Assembly: GCA_964414145.1 (NCBI GenBank) | Contig: CAYPVH010000001.1 | Coordinates: forward strand, 82,816-146,815 | DNA: 64,000 nucleotides | Reading direction: 5' to 3' | From: an uncultured Gammaproteobacteria bacterium | GTDB taxonomy: Bacteria > Patescibacteriota > Microgenomatia > UBA1406 | Shown here: piece by piece, positions 6,867 through 36,393 of the stretch | Numbering within the stretch: position 1 is the stretch's first letter | Layout: each line of letters starts with the position of its first letter | Program-made: the position numbers and the translations under genes | Notes under the pieces: model-generated | What the model saw: the letters and a program-made list of their open reading frames with translations, nothing else | Told to the model about the DNA's origin: nothing | The model's database searches: none

Positions 6867-6899
6867 GGGCACCGGGCTGGCCCAGCCCGGTGCCCTTTT
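6867..6899 (+). terminator. rho-independent terminator
   Basis: 13-bp GC stem GGGCACCGGGCTG/CAGCCCGGTGCCC with a 3-nt loop, followed by TTTT. Confidence 0.7.
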
Positions 6900-22262: not shown

Positions 22263-22499
22263 TTTGTATCTCCTTTCAATCATTATATACAACTCGAGAG
22301 AAAATAAACATTCACAAATAATTAGAAATTATATCGGCTTGGAATAGTTTGGTAGCTATTCATAGGCTCCCTAGCTCTAGAGTTCTGCAAATCTCGGTAT
22401 ATAGGCTTATATCAGTATTTAATGATGCCTGCCCGCCTTTAGTGGGTGATGCAGGTGGAGTTATTAAAGACGAGGTGGAGGGAAATTAAACCACACATA

Positions 22500-22730
22500 T
22501 TACCAAGAAAAATCGATAAAAGAAGCTACAATCAACACAAGTGCGAAAGTGAATGGATACAACATAAGATTTCCTATATTCTTTGTAAACCAATTATCTA
22601 CCTTGTCATCTTTTTGTATTACTTCCTCTAATTTCTTTTTAAAATCTAAGAATTTAATTGCCTCATCATGAGAGTTTTTTTCTAAAGCTTTATCTATCTG
22701 ATCTCGTACTTTTGAAATTGCAGAATGCAA
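22500..22730 (-). CDS. small C-terminally anchored protein
   Basis: 76 aa, lying 3 nt downstream of the GIY-YIG gene. Confidence 0.4.
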   Translation of the reverse strand: MHSAISKVRDQIDKALEKNSHDEAIKFLDFKKKLEEVIQKDDKVDNWFTKNIGNLMLYPFTFALVLIVASFIDFSW

Positions 22731-22733
22731 AAT

Positions 22734-23003
22734 CTATTTTTCCCAGGGTTTTCTTTTAAAATAACTTTTTAAAATCTTCTCAAGTTCTTTCTTGCCATTT
22801 CCGCCTTTTAAGTATACCTCTCTTCTTTTTGCATCTTGTTCAATAATAAATGCTTCATAATATATTAAATTAAAAGGAAGTCTATATTTGGTGGCTTTCA
22901 CAAACCCACCTTTATGTGCTTTTATTCTATTTCTAAGGTTGGGGGAATATCCTGTATACAACTTGCCATCTTTTTCACTATGGAGCACATAAATATAAAA
23001 CAT
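22734..23003 (-). CDS. small free-standing GIY-YIG nuclease-domain protein
   Basis: MFYIYVLHSEKDGKLYTGYSPNLRNRIKAHK, giving the GIY (YIY)...YTG signature plus R and E residues. 89 aa, catalytic domain only. Confidence 0.85.
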   Translation of the reverse strand: MFYIYVLHSEKDGKLYTGYSPNLRNRIKAHKGGFVKATKYRLPFNLIYYEAFIIEQDAKRREVYLKGGNGKKELEKILKSYFKRKPWEK

Positions 23004-23069
23004 TGAATAAATTATATGAATACAAAATGTGTTTGTCTGTCGACTAAAATCTACTTTTTCTTAAAAAAA

Positions 23070-23213
23070 CACGCTCACTGTGCGTGGGTGAATTATTTGC
23101 CTGCTCCCACGCTGAGCGTGGGTCTAAAAAGAGGCTGCTCCCACGCTGAGCGTGGGTCTAAAAAGAGGCTGCTCCCACGCTGAGCGTGGGATGAGCAGCG
23201 CTGAGCGCTGCTC
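23070..23213. repeat. tandem GC-rich palindromic repeat array (five hairpins, 34-bp unit, core CGCTGAGCG)
   Basis: The unit CTGCTCCCACGCTGAGCGTGGGTCTAAAAAGAGG occurs at 23101-23134 and 23135-23168, with a partial third copy to 23190. Degenerate hairpins sit at 23070-23086 and 23193-23213. Confidence 0.8.
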
Positions 23214-23314
23214 CCCCTAAAGGACTTATTCTGCAACCACAAATTAGAGTTTGACTTTACCTTGAGCGACCTCAAAATAATGTTTGAGACGCTACAATTA
23301 CAACCTGCTTTCAC

Positions 23315-23791
23315 TTAAACTACCACGGGGTCATCAGACACTTCAATAACCGTACTGTTGGGGATTTTCTTCAAGTCATCGGTTTTGTACTTAAAAGTAC
23401 AGACAAAACTCCCTGTACCTCCATTAAGGTATTCCTTCTCAAACACTCTTTGGTCAATGTAAGTGTCTAACCCAGGGATATACACTCTAGCCGCTCCGAA
23501 GGGAAGATTAGTGGTCTGCTCAAACTCCTCCTTAGTGGCAAACCTTAAATCACCAACTTTTAAGGTCTTTTTAATTTTCTTAAAACTCAAATGGTCATTT
23601 CCTTTTTTAAGAATAACGACAAATTTATCGTCAGCTTTCATAACCAATGAAGCCACGCAATCGGCAACTGTTTCCCCAAGATAACCTTGTACTTCTTCGG
23701 GGTTTACTAAATGCGGGTGCTCTAAGATTTTATGTTCAATGCCTAGGGACTTAAGTGCCTCACTGTATTCAATAACTGATTGCTCAATCAT
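23315..23791 (-). CDS. YbaK/aminoacyl-tRNA deacylase-like domain protein
   Basis: 158 aa. LVMKADDKFVVILKKGNDHLSFKKIKK...FATKEEFEQTTNLPFGA matches the YbaK/EbsC pattern from memory. Confidence 0.6.
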   Translation of the reverse strand: MIEQSVIEYSEALKSLGIEHKILEHPHLVNPEEVQGYLGETVADCVASLVMKADDKFVVILKKGNDHLSFKKIKKTLKVGDLRFATKEEFEQTTNLPFGAARVYIPGLDTYIDQRVFEKEYLNGGTGSFVCTFKYKTDDLKKIPNSTVIEVSDDPVVV

Positions 23792-23796
23792 AAGTT

Positions 23797-24507
23797 TTAT
23801 TCGTCTTTATCGTAGTAATAATCGACTATCCCTTCGGCCAATACTTCATCAGAGCTAATTGTCCTATTACCAAGCGCCTCGTAATTGATAGCTAAAGGTA
23901 ATTCGGTACACCCAAGTATTATTGCTTCAGCTCCACGGCTAAATAGGTCATTTAACGCTCCTATATACTCAGTTTTCTTATCAAACGACTTATTACCCGC
24001 TAGCACATCACGGATAATACTGTCGGCTACTTCAATTTCGTTTTCAGTTGGCAAAACAAGCTCAATTCCATTCTTTTTTAACTCCTGGTCATACAAACCA
24101 GATTTAATAAGAACGGGTGTCCCCAGCAATCCCACCTTCTTAAAACCGTGTCCAACACATTTTTTAGCGACCAATTCAATCATTGAAATAAACTTAACCT
24201 CGGTACTTTTTTGTAACTCATCAAGTAAGATATGAACTGTATTGCTTCCGATGCACAATCTTGTTGCCCCAGCGTTAGTAAGCGATTGAACTGATTTAAT
24301 TAACATTGTTTTTGCGGTTTCAATTTGGCTTGTGTCAGATATAAAATCAGGTACGGGTACACTTTCTATAAGTATCTGTGGGTAGTCATTATTATTTTTT
24401 GCTCCATATTTTGACTGGGCAAATTCAATGATTTTGCCATAGATAAACTGGGTAGCTTGTGGTCCTACGCCCCCGATAATTCCAACTTTTTTATTTACTT
24501 GGTTCAT
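23797..24507 (-). CDS. aspartate/glutamate racemase family protein
   Basis: GIIGGVGPQAT, CIGSNTVH and ILGCTELP supply the two catalytic Cys motifs. Confidence 0.85.
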   Translation of the reverse strand: MNQVNKKVGIIGGVGPQATQFIYGKIIEFAQSKYGAKNNNDYPQILIESVPVPDFISDTSQIETAKTMLIKSVQSLTNAGATRLCIGSNTVHILLDELQKSTEVKFISMIELVAKKCVGHGFKKVGLLGTPVLIKSGLYDQELKKNGIELVLPTENEIEVADSIIRDVLAGNKSFDKKTEYIGALNDLFSRGAEAIILGCTELPLAINYEALGNRTISSDEVLAEGIVDYYYDKDE

Positions 24508-25402
24508 AGTGATTTTTGGAAATAAACAATATACCTAATATAACAAAAACTGCACCAGCTAAGTAGGACAGATTAAAAGGCTCTTTCAAAATAAAATAAC
24601 TAAGTATTAGGCTACTTACTGGCACTACTCCCATAAATACACCTGCTGACGAAGCGTCAACCTTTGATAAACCCTTAAACCATAGCTGGAACGAAATAAC
24701 GGTAACAAATAATCCGTAATAAACTATTGACACCCAATCAGCTATTCCAACTGACGTAAAATTAAATCTTAAACCCTCTACAATCGAAAAAGGCAAAAAC
24801 ATTACAAAGCTAAAAAACGTAACATATGCAGCCATAATAAGAGGTGTGACCTTCGTAGAAACCAGCTTAGCCAAAACACTAAACAGTGCCTCAACGACAA
24901 CGCTTCCCATTACAAGACCCGCACCAATTAGCATTGCTGTTTTTTGCTCAGAAGTAGCATTTACGCTATTTAGGTTGATTATTAAAACACCTAAAACTGA
25001 TGAGGCAATACCAATCAGCTTATTTCTGGTAATAGCTTCTCTTAAGAGAATAAACGATAGAATACCAACCACAGCAGGACCTGTACTGGTAATAATTCCA
25101 GATTGCGTAGCTGTTGTATAGCGCAAACCATATAACAATAAAATCCTGTAGATGAAAGTTCCCAAAAAGGCCTGCAACAAAATTACCAGCAAATCTTTAC
25201 CTTTAAGGACTAGTAGCTTATTTCCTGAACTAGCCAATAACGTCAAAAAAATTAGCGACGCAATTCCTAGGCTTAAGCCAGATGCCAGAAAAACAGGGAA
25301 ACTTGAAGTAATTATCTTACCCACAACCATAGAGCTACCAACGATGGTCATAGCCGCGGCTAACTGCAAATACGCAACAATACTTTTATTACTTCGTTTC
25401 AT
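24491..25402 (-). CDS. EamA/DMT family transporter
   Basis: 303 aa with 10 TM segments. Confidence 0.8.
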   Translation of the reverse strand: MKRSNKSIVAYLQLAAAMTIVGSSMVVGKIITSSFPVFLASGLSLGIASLIFLTLLASSGNKLLVLKGKDLLVILLQAFLGTFIYRILLLYGLRYTTATQSGIITSTGPAVVGILSFILLREAITRNKLIGIASSVLGVLIINLNSVNATSEQKTAMLIGAGLVMGSVVVEALFSVLAKLVSTKVTPLIMAAYVTFFSFVMFLPFSIVEGLRFNFTSVGIADWVSIVYYGLFVTVISFQLWFKGLSKVDASSAGVFMGVVPVSSLILSYFILKEPFNLSYLAGAVFVILGILFISKNHYEPSK

Positions 25403-25650
25403 ACATTCTTAAATCTTCCTTTTTTAATTTCTTTAGAACCTCTGGTAACTGTTGCTATACCAACTTTCAGCTTATCAACAATCTCTCTCTGAGACACGCC
25501 TGCTTTTAACATTTTTACTATTTGAAGCCGACGAGCAACCTCATCCAGCTCTTGAGACGTCAAAAGTCCTTTAAGCAGGTCAAGCGCACCTTCACGGCTT
25601 TTAACCTTAAGCAAAGTCTCTACAAGCTCATTTATGTTCTTATCTTTCAT
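25399..25650 (-). CDS. TrpR-like (YerC/YecD family) DNA-binding protein
   Basis: LLTSQELDEVARRLQIVKMLKAGVSQREIVDKLKVGIATVTRGSKEIKKG. Confidence 0.75.
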   Translation of the reverse strand: MKDKNINELVETLLKVKSREGALDLLKGLLTSQELDEVARRLQIVKMLKAGVSQREIVDKLKVGIATVTRGSKEIKKGRFKNV

Positions 25651-25657
25651 AAAATAC

Positions 25658-25683
25658 GCACTATTGTACTAGTGCGATAGTGC
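25658..25683. promoter_or_regulatory. 26-bp imperfect palindrome centred on ACTAGT (candidate TrpR-type operator)
   Basis: GCACTAT-TGTACTAGTGCG-ATAGTGC lies immediately upstream of the TrpR-like gene and overlaps the candidate -10 boxes TACAAT/TAGAAT on the minus strand. Confidence 0.35.
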
Positions 25684-25840
25684 ATTCTAGCAAACACTTT
25701 GTGTTCTGTCAATCTGGGGTTATTAAGCAATGGTAAACTCCTTTGTAAACGCATTTAGTACCGAAAATGAGCCTGGATTTGGTTTACAGAACATTCAAAC
25801 AGTGTTTGACACTTTCCAAATTTGACCAACGCACGCCTAA

Positions 25841-27223
25841 CTACTCAGTGTCAGTTTTTGGCACAATGTTTTTTAAGTACTCGTCCGCTATATCAAGCAC
25901 TTCATTAAATGTAAGGATTTCTATATTATGTAAGCTATTCCTAAGTTTCGTAAAATCCCTCTTCAATTTTTCTTTCTCGCCCTTCTTAGTCGTTAGCTTT
26001 GACTGAGACGAAATAACTATAATGCCTCGTGGATGGTACAGGTTTTCTTCATCGGTAAACTGAGTTATCTTTTTCCTATCATCAACCTGCTTAAAACGCT
26101 CTTGCATAATAGCGTCCATATAGTTTGTGGTTTGGACAATCGCTTTACTTAATTCTGGAGAAAAATAAAAGTTTTGATGACTTTTATCCCAGTTTAGTGC
26201 ATTCTTAAGATGGGTTTTAATCTCTATAACATCTAACCCGTTATAGTGGTTAATACCAATAAAATCAGGATATTTTTTATCACCCTCAATATCTTTAAGT
26301 TCTACTTTCGAGAATATCTTTTTATAAGTAAAAATCAGATACAACAAATTTCTTTCAAAATATCTTTGCCAAACAGTTTCAAGCTGACCGATATTTGTTT
26401 CACCGATACGATTGATGACTTTCCGTGCGGGTGCTGTATTGAGATTTGTTGTCCCAAGTGCAAGGATTTCTCTGCCCAGCTCAATGATGTCTTTTAGCCT
26501 TTCTTTAATAAAGTAGTCATTTAGTTTTCTCAAAAATCCGTCAGACAGCACATCGTATCGCAATAGTTCTGTTATCAGTTCTTCAATAGAAGCAATGTCG
26601 CTTCCATCCAAATAACGCAAGAAGTCTTTTTTATTTCTCTTAGTCTTAAGGTAAAGGCGGTCAACTAAAAAACTAAACTCACCTTTTTCAAGATATGTTG
26701 TCCTTTTTCTTGTATTTTTACTGTAGTCGTGAGATTTGATATTAGATAAGTAATTTTCAGTAGAACTTCTATAGGATTGGCTCTTTTGGTAAACATATTC
26801 AGCGTCAGCCATTACCTTATCAAATATACTTTGTGGCAATGACAAAGTGCCTTTAACCAACACCATCTTTTTCGAGGTAGAACTGATTTTTATTTTCGTT
26901 ACCTCTTTTCCAAGAGGATTGATAATGTTTTTGAACTGTTGTTCACGGGACAATTTGTAATTCCCGTTATTACTCCTGAAATATAACCAGTTTCTAATGT
27001 TGTAGTCTTTCGGAAATGTTATCGTGCCGTATTTTTCTCTTTGGCTATAAGTCTTGTCATTAACAGAATACCAATAGAAGTTCAGTTGATATTCGCCTCG
27101 CTTTAAGCTCAATATGTCTCCACTTGGGATTTTTACACTTTGTTTTTCTTCATCAAGAGTAACGCCAGTCCATCCGCCTTGAGTAAGGTTGTCATATATA
27201 TATTTAGCTAATGTTATTGGCAT
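25841..27223 (-). CDS. DUF4263/Shedu (SduA)-like PD-(D/E)xK nuclease-domain protein
   Basis: C-terminal WQRYFERN...KYPDFIGINHYNGLDVIEIKTH...SPELSKAIVQTTNYMD...RGIIVIS...IEILTFNEVL resembles the DUF4263 nuclease core as recalled. 460 aa. Confidence 0.55.
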   Translation of the reverse strand: MPITLAKYIYDNLTQGGWTGVTLDEEKQSVKIPSGDILSLKRGEYQLNFYWYSVNDKTYSQREKYGTITFPKDYNIRNWLYFRSNNGNYKLSREQQFKNIINPLGKEVTKIKISSTSKKMVLVKGTLSLPQSIFDKVMADAEYVYQKSQSYRSSTENYLSNIKSHDYSKNTRKRTTYLEKGEFSFLVDRLYLKTKRNKKDFLRYLDGSDIASIEELITELLRYDVLSDGFLRKLNDYFIKERLKDIIELGREILALGTTNLNTAPARKVINRIGETNIGQLETVWQRYFERNLLYLIFTYKKIFSKVELKDIEGDKKYPDFIGINHYNGLDVIEIKTHLKNALNWDKSHQNFYFSPELSKAIVQTTNYMDAIMQERFKQVDDRKKITQFTDEENLYHPRGIIVISSQSKLTTKKGEKEKLKRDFTKLRNSLHNIEILTFNEVLDIADEYLKNIVPKTDTE

Positions 27224-27240
27224 ATTTTCTATTGTCTAAA

Positions 27241-28692
27241 CTATTTTTGTTTGATATACAAAGGTTCGTCGACCTTATACCCTTTGTCATTTTTATCAAG
27301 GTATGGATAACCTAACTGGTTCACATAGCCGAACCCGTTTACATACACCTCTTGTACCAATTGACCTGCAAAATAAGAAGGATGCCTATCGTCTTCTAGT
27401 TTAACCTCGACTTCCCATTTGTCCTGTTTAATGACATCGGTCAAAGCATGGAAGATGCCCTGAATGTGAGGTGGAAATAAGAGTTTAGTATTGCTCCCAG
27501 CGTTCAGAAATCCAGCTTCAACCTCATAATCGCTTTTTATATTAAAAACCGTTTTGAATACTTCTAAGGTTTGAAAGAAACTATCGATATACTCTGTTAG
27601 GGCAAACGCATTTACTACGTTGAATTTTTCATCCGTTTTATAATCGCTGACACCCCAATTTAAGAACTCGTCTATTGAACCAGCACTAAACAACCTACCT
27701 CGAATATCAAAACTCGTGAGCTTGCGGTTACCGTTTGTGATTTCCCATTTGTTTTTATTGGGATATGGATATTCAGATTGGGCTACACGTAAATCCCAAC
27801 CCATCTCTCTTAAATGTGGCGTATTTTTAATAAAGTGGTAAACAGATTTATCGCCTTGCTCCCAGAAATCTTTGACAACCGCATCTTTAATAGGGAAAGC
27901 AAAAAGGTAAAAAAGACCTTTTGAGCTATCTAGTTTTTGTATAGCGTAATCAACAATCTCATCTCTTAATGTAGTTTTTATTTGTTTCGCATCTTCTTTA
28001 CTTATTTTTTTTGAAAGTAGGTCTATTTTTGTGTCAATAGCTTCCAGCATTGATTTGAGGTATCTTGCTTGACCGTTATCATCTCCCCTAAACCCTGCCT
28101 GGATGAAAGTATGCAGTTTTTCAAGAGAATATGGAACGTTGACTGAACGGTCTCTAAAATATAAACCGAAGTTCTCTTTAATTGTTGATACACCCTCTTC
28201 ATATTTCTTAGATAAACTCACCAGCAACGGATATTCAGCAGTTTCACGAATATCTGCAATCTTTATCCAAAAGACTTTTTCATTCGTGCCACTATATCCA
28301 TATTCAAGCCACTGTCTCTTAAAATTGGGGATGCTATAGCCGAAAAGTATATCTTCCCAGCTCTTCATTTGAATATGGTCTTTAGGAACTGGCGCAATCT
28401 CAGTAATATATTCTGTTTTTTCGTTCGACTTTTTCAAAGTCTTAACACCGATACAGATAATCCCTCCACCTGAATTAGCAATCGAAACCACATCTTTAAC
28501 CAAATTAAACTTATGTCTTTCTTTGTCTGATTGCTCGCCAATAGAAGTTAAATAAGAAACCTCTCTGCATTCAAAATATGCCGTTTCTTCTACTCCAATC
28601 AATTCTTCGGGCTTGTTAGACGAAAGAATAGCAATCACCTCGTCAAGTGAAATGCTTCTGGTTTCTATAGCATCTTTTGCCTTGTCTCCCAT
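27241..28692 (-). CDS. AlbA_2 (Schlafen-like) N-terminal domain protein
   Basis: ETAYFECRE...LVKDVVSIANSGGGIICIGV resembles the AlbA_2 E..EFK...AFAN..GG.l.iGV signature. The C-terminal 330 aa or so are unassigned. It lies 17 nt upstream of the Shedu-like gene. Confidence 0.5.
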   Translation of the reverse strand: MGDKAKDAIETRSISLDEVIAILSSNKPEELIGVEETAYFECREVSYLTSIGEQSDKERHKFNLVKDVVSIANSGGGIICIGVKTLKKSNEKTEYITEIAPVPKDHIQMKSWEDILFGYSIPNFKRQWLEYGYSGTNEKVFWIKIADIRETAEYPLLVSLSKKYEEGVSTIKENFGLYFRDRSVNVPYSLEKLHTFIQAGFRGDDNGQARYLKSMLEAIDTKIDLLSKKISKEDAKQIKTTLRDEIVDYAIQKLDSSKGLFYLFAFPIKDAVVKDFWEQGDKSVYHFIKNTPHLREMGWDLRVAQSEYPYPNKNKWEITNGNRKLTSFDIRGRLFSAGSIDEFLNWGVSDYKTDEKFNVVNAFALTEYIDSFFQTLEVFKTVFNIKSDYEVEAGFLNAGSNTKLLFPPHIQGIFHALTDVIKQDKWEVEVKLEDDRHPSYFAGQLVQEVYVNGFGYVNQLGYPYLDKNDKGYKVDEPLYIKQK

Positions 28693-28759
28693 AACACTAT
28701 TCTATCGCAAACTGATAAAATATGATAAACAAACATAAGTATTGAAGATGTAATGAACT

Positions 28760-29473
28760 ATGCCGAAACTATCTGATAAAAAACTAACTCTTGGCCAAAT
28801 AAGTAAACTCTCGACAGAGGAGCAAACAAAGATTTTTGAACCAGTCGTAAAAGCAAATGAAAAGCAATTTAGGCAAATTGCCAGCACAATTATTGATGCT
28901 ACTAGTTTCGCCAAATCAATATCTGCTATAGCCTCAACTTTCAAGTTGCCCAATCTGGACTTTATCAAGAACTTCCAATTACCAGAAATTCCCCTATATG
29001 AACCACCCAAACTTGATATAACCAGCTTTGAAAGGTATGACCCACCTGTAACAATTAAAAAGACGCAACAAGAGTTAGAGCAAGAAGCAAGAGAGGCATA
29101 TAGAACCGAGCTTCAAATTCAAGTTCTTGAACAGCAGTTAAATATCTACAAAGGTATGCTTGCCCCTCAGTACGACATAAATACGGGTATTATTACATTT
29201 TTTGGTAAACAGATAGTAATTCCGTTAAATACAAAGCTCGAAATGGTGTGTCGTGTCGTTTTGAAAAATTCAAAAAATATGAAGCGAAAATGGTCTTGGG
29301 ACGAAGTGGTTATTGAAAACAGAGAGGAACCAGAAAACTTCACAGCCCGACAGATATACAATGCTACTCGCTCAATTAATGATAAAGTAGCCATCGAAAC
29401 ACAAATTAAAGATTTTCTACTGGCAAAACCCTTTACCACAGTTCAGTTAAACCCCAAATTCCTTCCTAAATAG
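28760..29473 (+). CDS. hypothetical element protein
   Basis: 237-aa ORF transcribed divergently from the defence-like operon. Confidence 0.55.
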   Translation: MPKLSDKKLTLGQISKLSTEEQTKIFEPVVKANEKQFRQIASTIIDATSFAKSISAIASTFKLPNLDFIKNFQLPEIPLYEPPKLDITSFERYDPPVTIKKTQQELEQEAREAYRTELQIQVLEQQLNIYKGMLAPQYDINTGIITFFGKQIVIPLNTKLEMVCRVVLKNSKNMKRKWSWDEVVIENREEPENFTARQIYNATRSINDKVAIETQIKDFLLAKPFTTVQLNPKFLPK

Positions 29474-29516
29474 TTAGCTAACTATAGCTACAACCCCGTT
29501 TTATATCCTTTCGGTA

Positions 29517-29702
29517 ATGGATACCGAAAAAGTAACGACGAGTAAACGGAGTTTCACCCTTACTTCAGAAGAACTCAGCAGGCTGACTGAGTTTTTTTCG
29601 TTGCTCATCCAAATCGATAGAAGAAATAGAGCCAGAAAGGAGGTGAACCGTTATGAAAATCAAGGCATTCGGAAAGATGATAGACCGAGAACGGGCTTAT
29701 GA
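29517..29702 (+). CDS. possible small element protein
   Basis: 61-aa ORF that overlaps the next gene by 50 nt. Confidence 0.3.
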   Translation: MDTEKVTTSKRSFTLTSEELSRLTEFFSLLIQIDRRNRARKEVNRYENQGIRKDDRPRTGL

Positions 29703-29871
29703 AATCATTATCAATGACAAAATTACTGATATTTGCCACGCCAGAAACACAGATACACTCGAAGACCTACTTATGTATGGTTGGGTTTCTCTGGAAAAGT
29801 GGACAGATAAAGAATTAGAGGAATATATCAGCGAGTTACTTGTCGAAAATCAGCCAGAAGGGAAAGTATGA
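29653..29871 (+). CDS. small acidic element protein
   Basis: 72 aa, with the strong SD AAAGGAGGTG upstream. Confidence 0.55.
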   Translation: MKIKAFGKMIDRERAYEIIINDKITDICHARNTDTLEDLLMYGWVSLEKWTDKELEEYISELLVENQPEGKV

Positions 29872-30161
29872 AAGCAACTATAAACGAAGTTCAAATAACT
29901 CCAGTTAAAGCAAACGAAGGACTCGTGGGTTTTGCCAGCTTCGTTTATAACAACAGCTTTTATTTTGGGTCAATCGGTATCTACACGCGACCACAAGGAG
30001 GGTATCGATTGACCTATCCCACTCGTAAGAGTACGAATGGCAATTTTAATATATTTCACCCAATTAACCGAGAAGTGGCAGAAGAAATCGAAAGAGTAAT
30101 TATTTCCAAGTTTGAAGATGTAACGAAAATGTATGTTGGACACAATAGTTTTAACCCTTAA
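29868..30161 (+). CDS. SpoVG-like protein
   Basis: ITPVKANEGLVGFASFVYNNSFYFGSIGIY...YRLTYPTRKS...FHPINREVAEEI parallels the SpoVG sequence pattern. Confidence 0.7.
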   Translation: MKATINEVQITPVKANEGLVGFASFVYNNSFYFGSIGIYTRPQGGYRLTYPTRKSTNGNFNIFHPINREVAEEIERVIISKFEDVTKMYVGHNSFNP

Positions 30162-31302
30162 ATCAGGTATGTTTACGATACTTGACCACGACAAATTTAG
30201 TCCATCAACCAAAGGGCTTTATGACCCTTCTGGTTACTATCGCTTGGGTGGTAGGTCTAACATAACTTGTAAGCAAAACCCGACCCCAAATGAGCTTAAA
30301 AACGGAATTTACAAACCAAGACTGACAGTTACCAAAAGAATGAACCGAGCGGGTAATTTTGAGATACCATTAAAAATTGAGTTTTCTGTTCCAAAACTAC
30401 TCTACGGCAATAACTTTGACGAGCTAACTGACGCTGATTTTCCCGCAGTCATCCAAAAACTTAAAATCGTCTTAAAAGAAATGGGTGTTAGAGTATTTGA
30501 GCAATTTCTAATCAATGCTCCCGTCTCATCGGTCCACTACTCCAAAAACATCGCCCTGACCGATTACACAACGCCCTATACCTACCTATCCCAGCTAACC
30601 AAGCTCAACATCAATAAGCGACTGGACACCAACAGAACAGACTTTAGGAACGAGGGGCACAGCTTCAAGTATCGGGCAAACTCGTTTGAGGTAGTTTTTT
30701 ATGACAAAATCAAAGACTTAGAGCAAGCTAAGGTTAGCGAGAAACGGGCTGAAGAAGAAGATAATGCCTTACAGCTTAATTTATTTGATGTGCTGACCAA
30801 GCAGAAACCGCTTGAGGTGTTGCGAGTTGAGATAAGACTAAATAGACGACAAAAAATCAACCAAATCCTCAAGAAAATAGGCAAGGAAGTAGAACCAACT
30901 TTTACAAACATATTTAGCCAAGACACAGCCAAAAAGGTCTTGCTTCACTACATCAGCGAAATTGAGGAAGCATACCCGCCTTTACTGGCATATCAATACG
31001 ACAGTCCCAAAAAGTTTTTTTCTTGCTTTTTAACTGCAAATCCTAAAATCAAGCTAACGCCTATCTTGAAAATGCTGGGATTGAGAGCATTGCTTGAGGA
31101 AATTGGCATAAGAGAGTTTAGGGAAATGACCAAGCGATACGGCAATTCTACTTGGTATAGTTTGAATAAGGAAATGAAAGAGCTGGGTAAGACTGATGAG
31201 GTTAGCGTGTTCTCACTTCTTAGAAAGCAAATAACCGAGTTTGAGCCATTAAAACTACTTGCAATTCAAGACCAGATGTTAAATAATGATAAATATAACT
31301 AA
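30133..31302 (+). CDS. rolling-circle replication initiator, filamentous-phage gene II/X (Phage_CRI)-like
   Basis: The N-terminus MLDTIVLTLKSG and the block LKIEFSVPKLLYGNNFDELTD parallel M13 gpII MIDMLVLRLPF and VEIKASPAKVLQGHNVFGTTD, as recalled. Confidence 0.65.
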   Translation: MLDTIVLTLKSGMFTILDHDKFSPSTKGLYDPSGYYRLGGRSNITCKQNPTPNELKNGIYKPRLTVTKRMNRAGNFEIPLKIEFSVPKLLYGNNFDELTDADFPAVIQKLKIVLKEMGVRVFEQFLINAPVSSVHYSKNIALTDYTTPYTYLSQLTKLNINKRLDTNRTDFRNEGHSFKYRANSFEVVFYDKIKDLEQAKVSEKRAEEEDNALQLNLFDVLTKQKPLEVLRVEIRLNRRQKINQILKKIGKEVEPTFTNIFSQDTAKKVLLHYISEIEEAYPPLLAYQYDSPKKFFSCFLTANPKIKLTPILKMLGLRALLEEIGIREFREMTKRYGNSTWYSLNKEMKELGKTDEVSVFSLLRKQITEFEPLKLLAIQDQMLNNDKYN

Positions 31303-31480
31303 TATGAAACAAGACCAGTATTACTCGATTGAAGAAGTTGCCAAAACCCTAAAAGTTGCCTATTTGACCGTGTATCGTTGGGTAAGAGCTAACCGCCTAA
31401 CTGCATACAAAGCGGGCAAACAATACAGAATAAGCAAGGATAATTTATCTCAGTTCTTAAAGAAATATGAAGCAAGATAG
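31286..31480 (+). CDS. excisionase-family HTH DNA-binding protein
   Basis: YYSIEEVAKTLKVAYLTVYRWVRANRLTAYKAGKQYRISKDNLSQFL. Confidence 0.75.
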   Translation: MINITNMKQDQYYSIEEVAKTLKVAYLTVYRWVRANRLTAYKAGKQYRISKDNLSQFLKKYEAR

Positions 31481-33416
31481 TCTTTATGAAAATAACAAAG
31501 CAGATTTGCTCGACATCTTTGGAGCGAGTGAGTTGTTGGGTGTATCTACTGCTACCGTAAGGAATTGGATTAAAACAGGTCAGCTTGCTTACTCCCCTAA
31601 TGAAAGAGGAAAACTGTTGGATAAAAAACAAATTGAACAACTTAAAACCGACATTCAGAACGGAAAAACTGAACGACTAAATAATCGAGCAAATAAAAGA
31701 AATTCAAAATCTACCTTCATCCCGATTGAACAATTAAGCCATAAAGACAAACTGCCACTTTTACAGTCATATATCAAACAGATAAATAAACACCAAATAT
31801 CGCTTCAAACCGCCCTGCTCATTCACAGCCTTTCGGTATTAAAAAAAGCCAAACTAGCGACTTTCGATGAACCTGTTTCAACCCTAAATGAAGTCAAATT
31901 TAAGAACAAAAATATAGAGAAGGTAATACTTGAATGGCAAGAAAAAATAGGAAGGATAAATCTATCTAACCTTCAAGAATTGTTAAACATAGAAGATGTA
32001 TTCAGCTCTGATAGCCTTGGTGTTTTATATCAATCCTTGCTTGATGAGGGCAAAAAGTCCCAAGGCGGTTCTTATTACACCCCCAAAACACTAATTGATG
32101 ATGTTGTTAAAGATTTATCTAGCCAGATAAAGAAAGGCTCAAAGGTTCTCGACCCTTGTTGTGGAACAGGACAGTTTCTGGTTGCTTTTTCAGAACATAT
32201 CTCCAACCCATTACTTTTATGGGGTTACGATATTGACCCGATAGCAGTACAAATTGCAAAAATAAATCTTGTTACAAGCTATCCAGAAATTGATTTTTAT
32301 CCGAATATATTCGTGGCAAACAGCCTCAGAGAAAACCCTGATGGTAAATTTGACATTATTGCAACAAATCCACCTTGGGGTTATCACTTTTCAATAGAGG
32401 AAAGCGAAATTTTGAGAAAGGCTTATCCAAATATCATTTCGAACGAGGCTTTTTCATACTTTTTAGTAAGAGGGACAAGTCTATTAAATGATAACGGTTC
32501 ACTTTGTTATGTGCTACCAGAGGCAATTACAAAGATAAAACAGCATCGAGATGTTAGAGGTTTTTTGTTAAGTGGTAGTGCTATTAAAAGCATTAAGCAT
32601 TTAGGAAATGTTTTTAGCAAAGTGTTATCACCCGTAATAACATTGACCGTCCAAAAAACAAATGGTCTTCAGAACGAAATTGAGGTTACACAAAAAGATG
32701 GACTAATGTCCAAAATCAAGCAAAGCAGATTTTTAAGCAACTCTGACTACACATTTGATACAAGTATTACCGAAAAAGACGAACTGTTAATAGCAAAAAT
32801 TTACAAAAATTGTTTTACAACATTAAAAGATAATGCAGATTGGGCATTGGGTATCGTTACAGGCAATAATAGTAAGTTCATTTCGACAACCAAAACAGAC
32901 AATAACGAGAAGGTGCTGAAAGGTGCAGACATACAAAAATATACTTTTAATCCTGCTACTTCGTTTGTCAAATTTACACCTGACGAATTTCAACAAGTCG
33001 CCCCTGTATGGAAATATCGAGCTAAAGAAAAACTAATTTATAAATTCATTTCAGGTGAGCTCGCCTTTGCATATGACGACAAACAAACATTAACTCTCAA
33101 TAGTGCAAATATACTCATTCCGAAAATTCCAGAAATCCCTACAAAAGTTGTGTTAGTTTTTCTCAACTCAAATATCTTTCAATACTTGTGGAAAAAGAAA
33201 TTTAATACGGTCAAAGTATTAAGAGGCGACCTTGAACTTTTACCCTTCCCACGAATTGATGATAAAACTCTTGCAGAAATCGAAAAAGATGTAGATAGTT
33301 TGTTATCTGGTATTGAAAGAGATAAACTCGAAGATGAACTAAATGAGTTCGTTTTTGATGCGTTTGGTTTAACATTAGATGAAAAACAATATATTAAAAA
33401 TTTTATAAGAAAATAA
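31467..33416 (+). CDS. N6-adenine DNA methyltransferase (Eco57I/TaqI-like, gamma class) with N-terminal HTH
   Basis: GGSYYTP, VLDPCCGTGQFLV (motif I), IIATNPPWG (motif IV NPPW). TaqI_C-like segment ALGIVTGNNSKF. N-terminal HTH LLGVSTATVRNWIKTGQL. Confidence 0.9.
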   Translation: MKQDSLYENNKADLLDIFGASELLGVSTATVRNWIKTGQLAYSPNERGKLLDKKQIEQLKTDIQNGKTERLNNRANKRNSKSTFIPIEQLSHKDKLPLLQSYIKQINKHQISLQTALLIHSLSVLKKAKLATFDEPVSTLNEVKFKNKNIEKVILEWQEKIGRINLSNLQELLNIEDVFSSDSLGVLYQSLLDEGKKSQGGSYYTPKTLIDDVVKDLSSQIKKGSKVLDPCCGTGQFLVAFSEHISNPLLLWGYDIDPIAVQIAKINLVTSYPEIDFYPNIFVANSLRENPDGKFDIIATNPPWGYHFSIEESEILRKAYPNIISNEAFSYFLVRGTSLLNDNGSLCYVLPEAITKIKQHRDVRGFLLSGSAIKSIKHLGNVFSKVLSPVITLTVQKTNGLQNEIEVTQKDGLMSKIKQSRFLSNSDYTFDTSITEKDELLIAKIYKNCFTTLKDNADWALGIVTGNNSKFISTTKTDNNEKVLKGADIQKYTFNPATSFVKFTPDEFQQVAPVWKYRAKEKLIYKFISGELAFAYDDKQTLTLNSANILIPKIPEIPTKVVLVFLNSNIFQYLWKKKFNTVKVLRGDLELLPFPRIDDKTLAEIEKDVDSLLSGIERDKLEDELNEFVFDAFGLTLDEKQYIKNFIRK

Positions 33417-33418
33417 TT

Positions 33419-34165
33419 ATGCAATCACTAAAGCACCAATTAGACAGCTTAATCTCTCAACTATCAAAAGAGGATGAAGCAGTTTTGAGGCAAAAACTGG
33501 ATAACTTAATGTCTGTATATCCTTTTAACGAGTATGAATTTATCATTTCTACGCTCTTAGGATTAAAAAAACTTAACCTTGATGATTATTACTTAATGAG
33601 AGATGAGTATATTGCAAGAAATATGTATCTTCATATCTTCGAGATAAGTGCTCCGAGAGGTTTTGGGGAATTATGGGCTCAAGGGCATTTGAAGGAGTTA
33701 GTACCTGACTTGGTCAAACCAACAAAAAAAATCGACCCTAACTATGCTGGGCAATATGACTTTATGTTAAATGTAGATGATAGCAAGTTCGTTACAATCG
33801 AAGTAAAAGCATCAAGAGCTGTAGATTTTAATAGCCACGAACCCTTATACATAAAAGCTCTATCAAAAGATGAAGATATGCCTTTTGATATGAACTTTCA
33901 ACAAGTTAAGCCCAAATGTTGCGATGTTTTTGTATGGATGGGCGTTTGGAGAGATGTTATTAGATATTGGGTCTTTTCTTCGAATGAGGTAGCGTCAAAC
34001 AAATACTATTCAACAGGGCAACACAGGGGTAATGTTGGAGAGGGACAACTGCATTTCAACAGAGAAAATATAGGCGAATTTGCAAGTTATGAGGCAAAAT
34101 CCGACAGCTTAAAGCAAGCTATTCTTGACGCATACCTAAGACAAATTGCCCCAATTAAGAAATGA
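33419..34165 (+). CDS. candidate cognate restriction endonuclease (PD-(D/E)xK-like)
   Basis: YDFML...FVTIEVKASR fits D...E-x-K. It starts 2 nt after the MTase stop. Confidence 0.5.
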   Translation: MQSLKHQLDSLISQLSKEDEAVLRQKLDNLMSVYPFNEYEFIISTLLGLKKLNLDDYYLMRDEYIARNMYLHIFEISAPRGFGELWAQGHLKELVPDLVKPTKKIDPNYAGQYDFMLNVDDSKFVTIEVKASRAVDFNSHEPLYIKALSKDEDMPFDMNFQQVKPKCCDVFVWMGVWRDVIRYWVFSSNEVASNKYYSTGQHRGNVGEGQLHFNRENIGEFASYEAKSDSLKQAILDAYLRQIAPIKK

Positions 34166-34168
34166 GCT

Positions 34169-35683
34169 ATGAAAGCAGTCATAATTGCACGAGTATCAAC
34201 AGAAGAACAAAAAGACGCAGGAAATTCCCTGCCAGCTCAAATAGTTCGCCTTGAAACTTATTGCGAAAGAAAAGGCTTTGAAGTTATCAAGAAATTCAGC
34301 TTTGACGAGAGTGCATATAAAAACAACCGAGAAGAATTTGACAGTATCTTGGACTACATAATCGGGCTAAAAGAGACTATAGCCGTTTGTTTTGACAAAG
34401 TAGACAGGTTATCAAGAAATGTTTTTGATATGCGGGTTGCCACTCTTTACGAGAAAGCACTTAAAGACGAGGTTGAGTTACATTTTCCCTCAGACGGACA
34501 GGTTATCAACAGTAAAATCTCGGCAGTTGAGAAGTTTCAGTTTGGTATTAGCTTAGGACTGGCTAAATACTTCTCAGACGCCATTAGCGACAATGTTAAA
34601 CGGGCACAGGAACAAATGGTTAGAAGCGGTATATTCCCTGGCAAAGCTCCTTACGGCTATCGCAACATAGATAAAGAGGACGGCAACAAATGGATTGAAA
34701 TTGACCCAATAAAAGCTCAGGTTGTAGAAAAAATGTATGAGTGGTATTCAATAGGTAGTTATTCAATGAACGAGATAAGAGCCGAGCTTAAAAAGGTGTT
34801 TAATGTTGATTTCTCAAAGGGTTATATTGACGCAATTTTGAAAAATCCCTTTTACTGCGGGACAATGGTTTACAACGAAAAAGAATATCCTCACTATTAC
34901 GACAGGGTAATTACCCAAGAGCTTTTTGACAAAGTCCAAGAAATTAAAGCGGGACACCATAAAAAGCACTTCAAATATGCTGGTTTACCCTTCTTATACC
35001 GAGGTCTAATCAGATGTGCCGATTGTGGTTGCCTGATAACCCCTGAAAGGAAAACCAAGAAAAGCGGTAAGACTTATCATTACTACCACTGCACCCAATA
35101 CAACGGCAAGCACGGGGCAGAGTGGCTGACAGAGGACGACCTGACCAAACAGTTCTCGGCAGTCTTTGACAAGCTACAAATGCCACAAGAAGCCGTAGAC
35201 GATATTGTTGAAGCACTACAGACTAACCATAAGCACAAATCAGACTTTTACCACGACTTGCTAAATCGCTATCAGACTGAACACCAAAAGTATGAGACAG
35301 GCATTGAGAAAGCCTATGACGACTACCTGCTCGGTAGTATTACTAAGGACAAGTATGAGGAAAAACGAAAAGAGTATCGGGCAAATCAGAAAGCAATAAC
35401 CAAGAAAATTGAGAAACTACAATTTGCCGATGAGGAATACTATATAACCTCAGAATACCTGCTAAAACTGGCTTCTAACGCAGGAAAATTGTTTGAAAGT
35501 TCTGAAGCCCACGAAAAACGGCTACTTTTGAAGATGGCACTTCAGAACTTGGAGTTGAATGGCAAAACAGCCCGATATGACTGGATAAAACCCTTTGACA
35601 AGATAGCTTTTTACGCCTCTCGTCAAGCTTGGCTCCCCCGCCTGGACTCGAACCAGGAACCTACCGATTACATTTATCTCTAG
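34169..35683 (+). CDS. large serine recombinase (integrase)
   Basis: N-terminal resolvase domain VIIARVSTEEQ...DRLSR. Recombinase domain and zinc ribbon CADCGC...YHYYHC. Coiled-coil C-terminus. The last 18 codons are antisense to the tRNA 3' exon. Confidence 0.9.
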   Translation: MKAVIIARVSTEEQKDAGNSLPAQIVRLETYCERKGFEVIKKFSFDESAYKNNREEFDSILDYIIGLKETIAVCFDKVDRLSRNVFDMRVATLYEKALKDEVELHFPSDGQVINSKISAVEKFQFGISLGLAKYFSDAISDNVKRAQEQMVRSGIFPGKAPYGYRNIDKEDGNKWIEIDPIKAQVVEKMYEWYSIGSYSMNEIRAELKKVFNVDFSKGYIDAILKNPFYCGTMVYNEKEYPHYYDRVITQELFDKVQEIKAGHHKKHFKYAGLPFLYRGLIRCADCGCLITPERKTKKSGKTYHYYHCTQYNGKHGAEWLTEDDLTKQFSAVFDKLQMPQEAVDDIVEALQTNHKHKSDFYHDLLNRYQTEHQKYETGIEKAYDDYLLGSITKDKYEEKRKEYRANQKAITKKIEKLQFADEEYYITSEYLLKLASNAGKLFESSEAHEKRLLLKMALQNLELNGKTARYDWIKPFDKIAFYASRQAWLPRLDSNQEPTDYIYL

Positions 35684-35950
35684 ATTTCTCTAAAGCATGG
35701 ACTATCTCATCACCCACATTGCTGTGGGGTAGGGCGCTCGTGGAGAGGTTATTGGTTGAACTCCTCACTCTCTAGTCTCTGCACCTTCTTGGCTACTTCT
35801 ATGTTCTTTCACCAAACTTGGCTCAGGATTACCATATTCCATAAAAGGAACTTAGGCTTCCCTGAATTCACCCTATTTTTCCTTGAGTGTTACCACTCAA
35901 GGCTGCAATCTTTGTTACAGTCGGTTGCTCTACCATTGAGCTACAGGGGA
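35630..35950 (-). tRNA. tRNA-Asn(GUU), interrupted by a group I intron; exons 35950-35917 and 35670-35630
   Basis: The joined exons give a 75-nt cloverleaf. Acceptor stem UCCCCUG/CGGGGGA, D stem GCUC/GAGC, anticodon stem ACCGA/UCGGU, loop CUGUUAA. T arm CCUGG-UUCGAGU-CCAGG, G73, encoded CCA. Confidence 0.85.
35671..35916 (-). ncRNA. group I (IC3-like) self-splicing intron, ORF-less, 246 nt
   Basis: The 5' exon ends in U and the intron ends in G. Guide sequence GAUUGCAG pairs with both exons. Three GNRA-capped hairpins are present. Core strings are GCCUAAG, CCUGAGCCAAG and AAGGUGCAGAGACUAGA. Confidence 0.8.
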
Positions 35951-35952
35951 AA

Positions 35953-35970
35953 TTCCGCCGGTAGGCGGAT
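35953..35970. repeat. left arm of perfect 18-bp inverted repeat (TTCCGCCGGTAGGCGGAT), itself a hairpin
   Basis: Exact reverse complement of 36252-36269. It lies 2 nt from the tRNA 5' end and 1 nt from the GIY-YIG stop codon. Confidence 0.9.
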
Positions 35971-35971
35971 T

Positions 35972-36232
35972 TTAAACGCCTACTGACTTAATCAATCTTT
36001 TAATGAACTGCCTTCCTTGATAGCTTTTCAATTTCTTTTCTCTTTCTACTGCTCTATATCTTGAGATAAGCTTTTCTTTAAAAATTAACTGCCATTCACC
36101 GTCAAATCTCGCAGTATAACTTCTTTTTAAAACTCTGCTATTGTGTTCTTTTACCCTCTTAATCAAGCTATCAGTCTGACCAATATATATTTTGTTATAC
36201 TTTTTGTTATATAAAGCATATACCCAAAACAT
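35972..36232 (-). CDS. small free-standing GIY-YIG nuclease-domain protein
   Basis: MFWVYALYNKKYNKIYIGQTDSLIKRVKEHN, giving a GIY-like VYALY...YIG signature. 86 aa. Confidence 0.85.
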   Translation of the reverse strand: MFWVYALYNKKYNKIYIGQTDSLIKRVKEHNSRVLKRSYTARFDGEWQLIFKEKLISRYRAVEREKKLKSYQGRQFIKRLIKSVGV

Positions 36233-36251
36233 AGTACAATTATACTAGATC

Positions 36252-36269
36252 ATCCGCCTACCGGCGGAA
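36252..36269. repeat. right arm of perfect 18-bp inverted repeat (ATCCGCCTACCGGCGGAA)
   Basis: Exact reverse complement of 35953-35970. It lies 19 nt upstream of the GIY-YIG start. Confidence 0.9.
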
Positions 36270-36393
36270 AAGAGCTATGCGAACTTAAGTATATTACCAT
36301 AAAAAGGAGAGAGTTTGAATATGAAGTAACCATTAAAGCTTCTGTTTATTAATGTGGTTGAAATATTACTTATAATATCTTATAATATTTGCT

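Follow-up and report, generated by a model that had tools for sequence, protein, structure and literature searches.

A small GIY-YIG nuclease gene and its palindromes: a probable tRNA-anchored module of the CPR/Patescibacteria, apparently split here by an island

What is the function of a row of GC-rich palindromes that stands directly in front of a gene for a very small nuclease? The question is raised by a stretch of 64,000 nucleotides (nt) of contig CAYPVH010000001.1, here called the window, in which the gene GIY1, encoding a GIY-YIG nuclease of 89 amino acids (aa), is preceded on its own strand (minus, here the gene strand) by four perfect hairpins and one degenerate hairpin, H1 to H5. A first-pass annotation had described this pairing of gene and array, supposed that it recurs, and compared it to the repetitive extragenic palindromic (REP) elements and bacterial interspersed mosaic elements (BIME) that accompany RAYT transposases, with a nuclease of another class. 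The gene and its array are confirmed here, and the adjacent gene is indeed of the GIY-YIG class and not of the HUH/Y1 class. Sequence comparison shows the array to be the set of palindromes cognate to GIY1 and one copy of a module conserved across the Candidate Phyla Radiation (CPR)/Patescibacteria; the palindromes of this module are anchored on the 3' ends of tRNA genes, a feature that goes beyond the earlier annotation. We regard it as probable that GIY1 and its palindromes form a tRNA-anchored module which is split by an island in the window, and which would act, by analogy, in the manner of the Ssn nucleases.

Read along the gene strand, the 311-nt spacer upstream of GIY1 contains H1, H2 to H4, H5 with a run of seven T (T7), a promoter-like site, and the ATG, with H5 at 67 nt from the ATG (coordinates in Table 1). 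H2 to H4 are three copies of CCCACGC-TCA-GCGTGGG, each followed by AGCAGC or AGCAGG, and these tails repeat the pentamer ahead of the H1 core. Palindrome, tail AGCAGC, and a spacer make up the 34-nt unit, the tandem repetition of which had been recognized correctly. The centres of H1 and H2 are 21 nt apart. The core CGCTGAGCG occurs four times in the window, as previously counted, compared to 0.10 expected occurrences, and the 17-mer CCCACGCTGAGCGTGGG, with up to 3 mismatches allowed, is confined to the array (6 strand-matches versus 0.04 expected). Folding of the array compared to shuffled sequences gives z = -8.9 and -8.4, and only one further GC-rich hairpin whose stem has 7 bp or more lies in the window outside the tRNA and the array (6867-6895). 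The weaker hairpin that the first-pass annotation had placed on the other side of GIY1 (22427-22456) does not stand up to the same comparison: its z is -0.13 on the gene strand and -2.0 on the other strand, and it has no GCTNAGC centre. In Rfam 15 the array matches no family at the gathering threshold or by E-value (the region yields chance-level miRNA and CRISPR-DR matches far below threshold); the only Rfam match that passes in the entire window is a group I intron. The array is identical in all 5 near-identical metagenome contigs, two of which (L003 and L004) terminate within it. There is therefore no copy-number variation within that population, and the strain-level variation of the 34-nt unit that had been envisaged is not found.

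GIY1 matches PF01541 with 48.9 bits (cut-off 22.6), and the domain occupies residues 1-71. The listed GIY1 homologues (182 proteins, 80-112 aa) are almost wholly from CPR/Patescibacteria, among them Gottesman-, Collier-, Woese-, and Roizmanbacteria. In an alignment of 27 homologues the catalytic-type residues Y5, Y16, G18, R26, H30, and E62 are invariant in all 27, and a C-terminal YLKGGNGK motif is particular to GIY1. The open reading frame (ORF) of 76 aa directly downstream of GIY1 has no tblastn match in 80 related loci and probably stands outside the module. These 80 loci are those of the best 80 among 415 relatives that a scan of one genome per species yielded, and the locus counts below refer to them; the prefix L numbers these loci and the other contigs compared.

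The association of gene and palindromes recurs among the relatives. At least one perfect GCTNAGC-centred hairpin is found upstream of the gene in 65 of the 80 loci. Irrespective of pairing, the density of GCTNAGC sites is 6.06/kb over the 350 nt that precede the gene, 0.83/kb downstream, and 0.14/kb elsewhere, an upstream enrichment of about 43-fold that bears out the supposed recurrence and the proximity of palindromes to GIY-YIG genes. At least 3 further Watson-Crick pairs extend 85% of the upstream sites, versus 10% of those elsewhere. Perfect hairpins of this type amount to 2.87/kb within 350 nt on either side of the gene versus 0.014/kb away from it (about 205-fold), the latter figure corresponding to 8 hairpins in 573 kb of flanking DNA. 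For GC-rich perfect hairpins of any centre, the density within 350 nt of the gene is 12 times that elsewhere, and nearly all of these are centred on GCTNAGC. The second palindrome follows the first by 20-22 nt (between centres) in 56 of 58 loci, the number of perfect upstream hairpins ranges from 0 to 4 per locus, and tandem units resembling those of the window exist in L073, L060, L036, L056, and L028. In nearly all loci GIY1 follows the hairpins by 25-260 nt.

The part of the palindrome that is kept is the 9-nt core MGCTNAGCK, and the outer stem is free to vary. The inner pairs are excluded as evidence for covariation because the selection of hairpins by GCTNAGC forces them; the pairs 3-19 and 4-18, which are free of this selection, are formed in 121 and 127 of 129 distinct hairpins, respectively, with all four Watson-Crick pair types at each and few G-U pairs. 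Stems are perfect in 152 of 169 cases, and T:G pairs account for only 5 of 1465 pairs (0.3%), without strand bias. Such near-perfect, almost wobble-free stems are, to judge by the pattern, characteristic of palindromic DNA and not of a helix evolving as RNA. We note that the tRNA D-arm sequence AGCTCAGC also fits an MGCTNAGC core. A metagenome scan for two hairpins at a distance of 10-30 nt yielded only two unrelated GC-rich contigs, L091 (~1170-1340) and L092 (488-550), with REP-like repeats that contain the identical 17-mer CCCACGCTGAGCGTGGG; there the 17-mer stands in a TTCCCACGCTGAGCGTGGGAAC context, which is NTS-like, and neither of the two contigs, which are short, shows a GIY gene.

The relatives also indicate on what the palindromes are built. 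A tRNA or transfer-messenger RNA (tmRNA) gene on the same strand ends at most 400 nt upstream in 52 of the 80 loci, and several further loci hold intron-containing tRNAs that ARAGORN misses. The module has the order tRNA/tmRNA gene, first palindrome, second palindrome, X repeat, and nuclease gene, where X denotes the last 5-6 nt of the tRNA, which at the same time form the 5' arm of the first palindrome (for example ...CTCCCGA-G-CCA / CGCTAAGCG / TGGCT). A hairpin stands directly after 46 tRNAs, only 2 of which are other than the GIY1-adjacent tRNA, and is absent after the other 68 tRNAs of the same loci; 14 tRNA identities are used in addition to tmRNA. X recurs after the second palindrome, exactly in 23 of 75 cases and with at least 4 of 5 positions in 44 of 75, compared to 0 in a random control, so that the layout reads X-core-X'-hairpin2-X, with an X' able to pair with either copy of X. 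In several species the unit of hairpin2 and X is amplified in tandem. The window scores 5/5 twice: X is AGCAG(C) and recurs after H2, H3, and H4. By these comparisons the array of the window obeys all layout rules of the module, and H1 appears as the counterpart of the tRNA-end hairpin of the family. The nucleotides CC after the discriminator are encoded in 38 of the 46 hairpin-linked tRNAs versus about a third of the others. The idea that the element imposes a tRNA 3' end of its own, recognizable by a G2:U71 wobble, was also considered; the wobble is enriched (18/46 vs 8/68, p 0.001), yet the idea was rejected because this wobble is natural in CPR tRNA-Lys and tRNA-Glu without hairpins.

No tRNA gene adjoins the array of the window itself, a probable reason for which is found 12.4 kb away. 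The four loci L006, L008, L009, and L010 encode GIY1 proteins with 67-73% identity to the window protein (85-92% among themselves), and in each of them a second type of GIY-YIG gene (GIY2), tRNA-Asn(GTT), the palindrome pair, and GIY1 are contiguous within ~1 kb. In L008 and L009, beside the closest GIY1 homologues, the tRNA-Asn carries a group I intron as in the window, where ARAGORN calls tRNA-Asn(gtt) only once the intron is removed. In the window, GIY2 and tRNA-Asn are located on the GIY1 strand but 12.4 kb apart from the array. In addition, the 8 bases ahead of the H1 core are identical to the end of the tRNA-Asn acceptor (35632-35639), and in relatives it is the tRNA 3' end that stands ahead of the hairpin core. 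Because close relatives have tRNA-Asn, hairpins, and GIY1 in contiguity, and because of the position of this 8-mer, we infer an insertion: the array probably followed tRNA-Asn(GTT) originally and was split off by a defence island of ~12.4 kb with a serine recombinase. Further genes of the island encode a tRNA_edit-domain protein, a racemase, and EamA and TrpR-like proteins. A comparable arrangement is seen in L010, where the tRNA 3' end and the hairpin pair form direct repeats on both sides of a 4.4-kb segment that starts with GIY1.

Table 1. Features of the window discussed in the text, in order of position; strands are those of the window, and an empty cell means that no entry is given.
Feature	Position	Strand	Basis
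76-aa ORF, downstream of GIY1	22500-22730	-	no Pfam or NCBIfam family
GIY1, 89-aa single-domain GIY-YIG nuclease gene	22734-23003	-	Pfam PF01541, E 8e-13
Promoter-like site CAGACA-17-TATAAT between array and ATG (candidate)	23011-23039	-	consensus scan, 10/12; consensus match only
H5, degenerate, CACGC-ACAGTGA-GCGTG (hairpin 23070-23086), then T7; terminator-like	23063-23086	-	terminator scan
Tandem array, 34-nt unit, 2.6 copies	23101-23190	-	Tandem Repeats Finder (TRF), 100% matches
H4, perfect hairpin	23106-23122	-	hairpin search
H3, perfect hairpin	23140-23156	-	hairpin search
H2, perfect hairpin	23173-23191	-	hairpin search
H1, GAGCAGC-GCTCAGC-GCTGCTC, perfect 9-bp stem	23193-23213	-	hairpin search
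GGGGGAGC, probable remnant of tRNA-Asn acceptor 3' end; abuts/overlaps H1	23210-23217	-	position
Putative inserted island, ~12.4 kb, approximate borders	23218-35629	.	Pfam content and synteny
Shedu SduA_C protein (in island)	25841-27223		Pfam
Schlafen/AlbA_2 protein (in island)	27241-28692		Pfam
N6-methylase with TaqI_C and HTH (in island)	31467-33416		Pfam
Large serine recombinase (Resolvase, Recombinase, Zn_ribbon_recom)	34169-35683	+	Pfam; ORF runs antisense into tRNA 3' exon
tRNA-Asn(GTT), group I intron 35671-35916 (246 nt) in anticodon loop	35630-35950	-	Rfam RF00028, 105.5 bits; ARAGORN
Hairpin TTCCGCCGGTAGGCGGAT, 2 nt upstream of tRNA 5' end	35953-35970	+	arm of 18-nt perfect inverted pair around GIY2
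GIY2, 86-aa GIY-YIG gene of second type	35972-36232	-	Pfam, E 1e-11; BLASTP
Inverted copy of 18-nt hairpin, upstream of GIY2	36252-36269	-	repeat search

GIY2 is the only other GIY-YIG gene of the window, with 30% identity to GIY1 (BLASTP), and its homologues occupy the same position upstream of tRNA-Asn in the four close relatives. The first-pass annotation had seen a pattern shared between the two genes. This holds insofar as GIY2 is bracketed by a perfect inverted pair of 18-nt hairpins (3 matches with at most 3 mismatches in the window versus 0.01 expected), and fails insofar as the hairpin types differ, being MGCTNAGCK for GIY1 and TCCGCC-N3-4-GGCGGA for GIY2. The GIY2 hairpin resembles the NTS core, without matching the published SRM pattern. 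Decayed copies of tRNA 5' halves are located upstream of GIY2-type genes in L006, L008, L009, L010, and L085 as well as in the window (36252-36290), and hairpins of the form TCCGCC-N3-4-GGCGGA or CCTGCC...GGCAGG are inserted in the D-loop region of these decayed copies (...GTAGCTC[hairpin]AGCGGTAGAGC...). The pattern suggests that tRNA genes were the insertion sites of GIY2 elements and that the 5' part of the tRNA was duplicated on insertion. A further hairpin of the GIY2 type, GATCCGCCAACTGGCGGAC, is intergenic at 1856-1873 with no GIY-YIG gene nearby. Apart from these subjects, the window contains a GC-rich island of ~300 nt in the AT-rich genome (6606-6900), which looks like foreign DNA; it harbors a small signal-peptide-like ORF (MKKKTLFLAMAALLALATLAAGQKW...) and a hairpin with a 13-bp stem followed by TTTT (6867-6899).

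Among known systems, the closest in anatomy is the Ssn family of single-domain GIY-YIG proteins of ~94 aa (cd10448), described by Chenal et al. (2025, Nat Commun, PMC11893778). The genes of this family are flanked by the hairpin repeats NTS/SRM, and the proteins attach to the hairpin when the DNA is single-stranded and cleave next to it, with no activity on duplex DNA or RNA. GIY1 likewise is a single domain of ~90 aa without an additional DNA-binding domain, and its gene is tied to hairpin-forming inverted repeats (20-50 nt) in which the stems covary and the core is kept; GIY2 shows the arrangement hairpin-gene-hairpin. GIY1 and GIY2 each have 32% identity (GIY1 with E 3e-11) to the reference used for the Ssn type, Azospirillum WP_014249537, which is flanked by 4 canonical SRMs, and the hhalign comparison of GIY1 with SRM-flanked Ssn-type proteins gives a probability of 97% (E 2.7e-11). 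The palindromes described here depart from the published repeats in having the centre MGCTNAGCK, a 3-nt loop, and no GTC flank. They also lack dispersal, stand almost only upstream of the gene, and are built onto tRNA 3' ends in the layout X-X'-X. The repeats are not classified as SRMs because the published pattern, HGTCWYN(0-2)YYVSBRHN(0-5)WNVSBRGN(0-2)RNCYNB, finds no match. From the sequences, the module is therefore like Ssn/SRM in anatomy, and its membership of the Ssn family is not established. We also note two observations on canonical SRMs: the Ssn-type gene of L088 (Azospirillum lipoferum 4B plasmid AZO_p3, 255506-255799), with two SRMs per side, lies inserted in the suf operon, with sufB on one side and sufC on the other, and an NTS-like SRM of a Roizmanbacteria genome (TGTCATTCCCGCGCAGGCGGGAATCCAG; L051, 3307-3334) is intergenic and solitary, with no small GIY-YIG gene adjoining.

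A second family to be considered is UPF0213/YhbQ (PDB 1ZG2, BH0048; 1YWL, EF2693), whose members share the size and the single domain of GIY1. BH0048 is the best match among solved structures (42% identity over 65 aa, E 6.5e-10), and hhalign aligns GIY1 with UPF0213 at E 1e-13 and Ssn-type proteins with UPF0213 at E 5e-8. No function or hairpin association of UPF0213 was found in the literature searched. The phage T4 gene segB (PMC2330249) resembles GIY1 in being a GIY-YIG gene beside tRNA genes, with spread expected via conserved-tRNA homology; the Seg proteins differ by an added DNA-binding domain, by cutting double-stranded DNA of the endonuclease-free allele, and by the lack of cognate palindromes beside the gene. 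Free-standing homing endonucleases are marked by presence/absence polymorphism at a conserved site and by cutting of the empty allele; no allele with an empty site was recovered here. Moreover, GIY1 is nearly absent from viral contigs, where a single weak relative was found. A tblastn search against plasmids gave nothing useful; we note that NZ_CP119140.1 and NZ_CP119142.1, filed as plasmids in PLSDB, are 2.17-Mb Neisseria gonorrhoeae chromosomes, and that other multi-megabase 'plasmids' are present there too. With islands that target tRNA genes the module shares tRNA 3' ends as insertion points, and the segments of the window and of L010 are bounded by copies of tRNA ends, but the GIY1 module has a length of only ~0.4 kb and no integrase. 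The words tRNA, CPR, and Patescibacteria are absent from the text of PMC11893778, and the literature searched contains no other paper on this arrangement of GIY-YIG gene and tRNA palindromes. The module is a tRNA-anchored variant of the theme of nuclease plus hairpin that is absent from the literature searched.

How might such a module work? By analogy with the Ssn family, GIY1 would recognize its palindromes when they are folded in single-stranded DNA, as it arises during replication, uptake, or repair, and would nick at or near the junction between tRNA gene and element. There is also a pattern of relocation: the nearest neighbour of a protein is located beside a different tRNA in 33 of 54 cases, and near-identical proteins occur at different tRNAs (87% for Arg/Glu and Glu/Lys, all ending in TCACC; 83% for Leu/Phe, GGCACA). 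The groups within which such swaps occur share X, namely TCACC for Arg, Glu, Lys, and Val, GGCACA for Leu and Phe, and AGCCA for Gln and Asn. Because swaps occur between tRNAs with a common X, these patterns suggest that the module relocates between tRNA genes with X as the target. The role of X recalls the guide/target pairing of IS608, with its short target adjacent to the hairpin. Two loci hold copies that consist of hairpins only, with no GIY gene: L010, where they lie at +4.1 kb together with a duplicate of the tRNA end, and L051, where they follow another tRNA that has the same X. A far-reaching version of this proposal, which we consider doubtful, is that the module is a minimal mobile element which inserts exactly after a tRNA, uses X' as a guide that pairs with the target X, rebuilds the palindrome at the junction, and hops between tRNAs that share X; the hairpin-only copies of L010 and L051 would then be non-autonomous. 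If true, this would constitute a new class of hairpin-guided mobile DNA with GIY-YIG chemistry.

Four other explanations were weighed. One is a stack of terminators or insulators: as RNA, the hairpins would end or insulate transcripts that enter from the gene upstream, ancestrally the tRNA, and the nuclease gene would simply happen to follow. H5 followed by T7 has a terminator-like score, the units of H2 and H3 each have a run of five T at 9 nt past the stem, the genes on both sides of the array are co-oriented, and the hairpins of relatives are within the tRNA 3' trailer. Most palindromes, however, have no T tract, and only H5 of the window has a GC stem directly followed by a T run. The closest relatives (L006 to L010) keep a separate, canonical terminator of hairpin and T run between the palindrome pair and the gene, where the window has H5 and T7 (at -97 in L007 and -50 in L009). 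Terminators have neither an invariant 9-nt centre nor a fixed spacing of 21 nt, wobble pairs make up only 0.3% of the pairs here, and only 2 of 63 tRNAs other than the GIY1-adjacent one carry a hairpin. We therefore consider a terminator stack unlikely; the first-pass annotation had named such a stack, conserved without copy-number variation, as the opposing case, and across species the copy number varies from 1 to 4. A different role as RNA would be that of a mimic of the tRNA acceptor end: the second hairpin and X form a microhelix with an N73-CCA-like end that guides RNase P/Z or the CCA enzyme, or that keeps tRNA and nuclease mRNA apart. The tails of the later hairpins do repeat the tRNA's own N72-N73-CC(A), and the preference for encoded CC as well as the hairpins that abut the ATG point in the same direction. 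We nevertheless hold this to be distinctly improbable, as the palindromes are nearly free of G-U pairs, the acceptor stem would face competition from hairpin 1, and the window keeps the architecture with an X (AGCAGC) that has no CCA; SsnA, albeit a different protein, is inactive on RNA (PMC11893778).

The two remaining explanations concern DNA. As an attachment site, the tRNA-end palindromes would be a landing pad for integrative elements, with GIY1 as cargo or neighbour. Attachment sites of serine recombinases are imperfect palindromes, and both the serine-recombinase island between tRNA-Asn and array and the 4.4-kb segment of L010 would fit. Most loci, on the other hand, have no recombinase between hairpins and gene, a distance of 25-260 nt to GIY1 is maintained in nearly all of them, and neither the invariant centre nor the constant small nuclease is accounted for, which makes an attachment site quite unlikely. 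Roles as attachment site or RNA microhelix are possible as secondary or alternative functions. The last explanation is that of REP/BIME-like dispersed repeats, mobilized by a GIY-YIG enzyme in place of RAYT. The likeness to REP/BIME-RAYT and to IS200/IS605 TnpA, a nuclease gene beside its palindromic hairpins and a presumed recognition of the folded single strand, is an analogy, and for the Ssn family the same parallel to IS200/IS605 and REP/RAYT has been drawn in print by its authors (PMC11893778); to this extent the comparison made in the first pass stands. Palindromes that cluster beside a nuclease gene, solo hairpin pairs in L010 and after the second tRNA of L051, and the 17-mer in REP-like copies on unrelated contigs are in its favor. 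The dispersal that the comparison implies, with tens to hundreds of extragenic copies per genome, is not found in the DNA covered: the 64 kb contain 0 further copies, even at 3 mismatches, the 573 kb contain 8 hairpins away from the gene, and the hairpins are locked to tRNA 3' ends instead of spread over intergenic regions. The enzymes differ as well, HUH Y1 on one side and GIY-YIG, without a covalent intermediate for rejoining, on the other, and most loci have no pair of left and right ends. We rate dispersed REP-like repeats as very improbable.

Several points weigh against the tRNA-anchored, Ssn-like module that we prefer. The borders of the island are derived from synteny and from an 8-nt repeat that is not significant alone (local alignment of the junctions is at chance level), and no island-free allele is present among the contigs recovered, as all 4 obtained by a look-up of GIY2 carry the island side. 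The published SRM pattern has 0 matches in the window and within 400 nt of any GIY1 homologue, whereas the control gene of Azospirillum gives 4. By hhalign, GIY1 stands no further from UPF0213 than from Ssn-type proteins. The hairpins are one-sided, with 162 upstream and 23 downstream of the gene, unlike the arrangement NTS-ssnA-NTS. In L030 and L059 they touch the ATG and must therefore be transcribed, and a role as RNA is thus possible. GIY-YIG enzymes do not religate, which leaves the chemistry of a transposition without explanation. Finally, both the mobility of the module and, by analogy, the binding and cutting of these hairpins by GIY1 are inferred.

On the preferred reading, each GIY1 gene of the CPR brings its own candidate substrate, a covarying pair of palindromes with an invariant 9-nt centre and a species-specific stem, located on a tRNA gene. 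The Ssn-style pairing of nuclease and hairpin, useful for tools that act on single-stranded DNA, would thereby reach a large clade of uncultured bacteria, in whose genomes small GIY-YIG genes rank among the most frequent 'hypothetical nucleases'. For annotation, arrays of this kind break assemblies, as in L003 and L004, and the neighbouring intron-containing tRNAs escape tRNA finders. The module also links tRNA gene ends, the insertion of islands, and nuclease/hairpin pairs, and thereby bears on the rearrangement of ultra-small genomes and on tRNA genes as hot spots.

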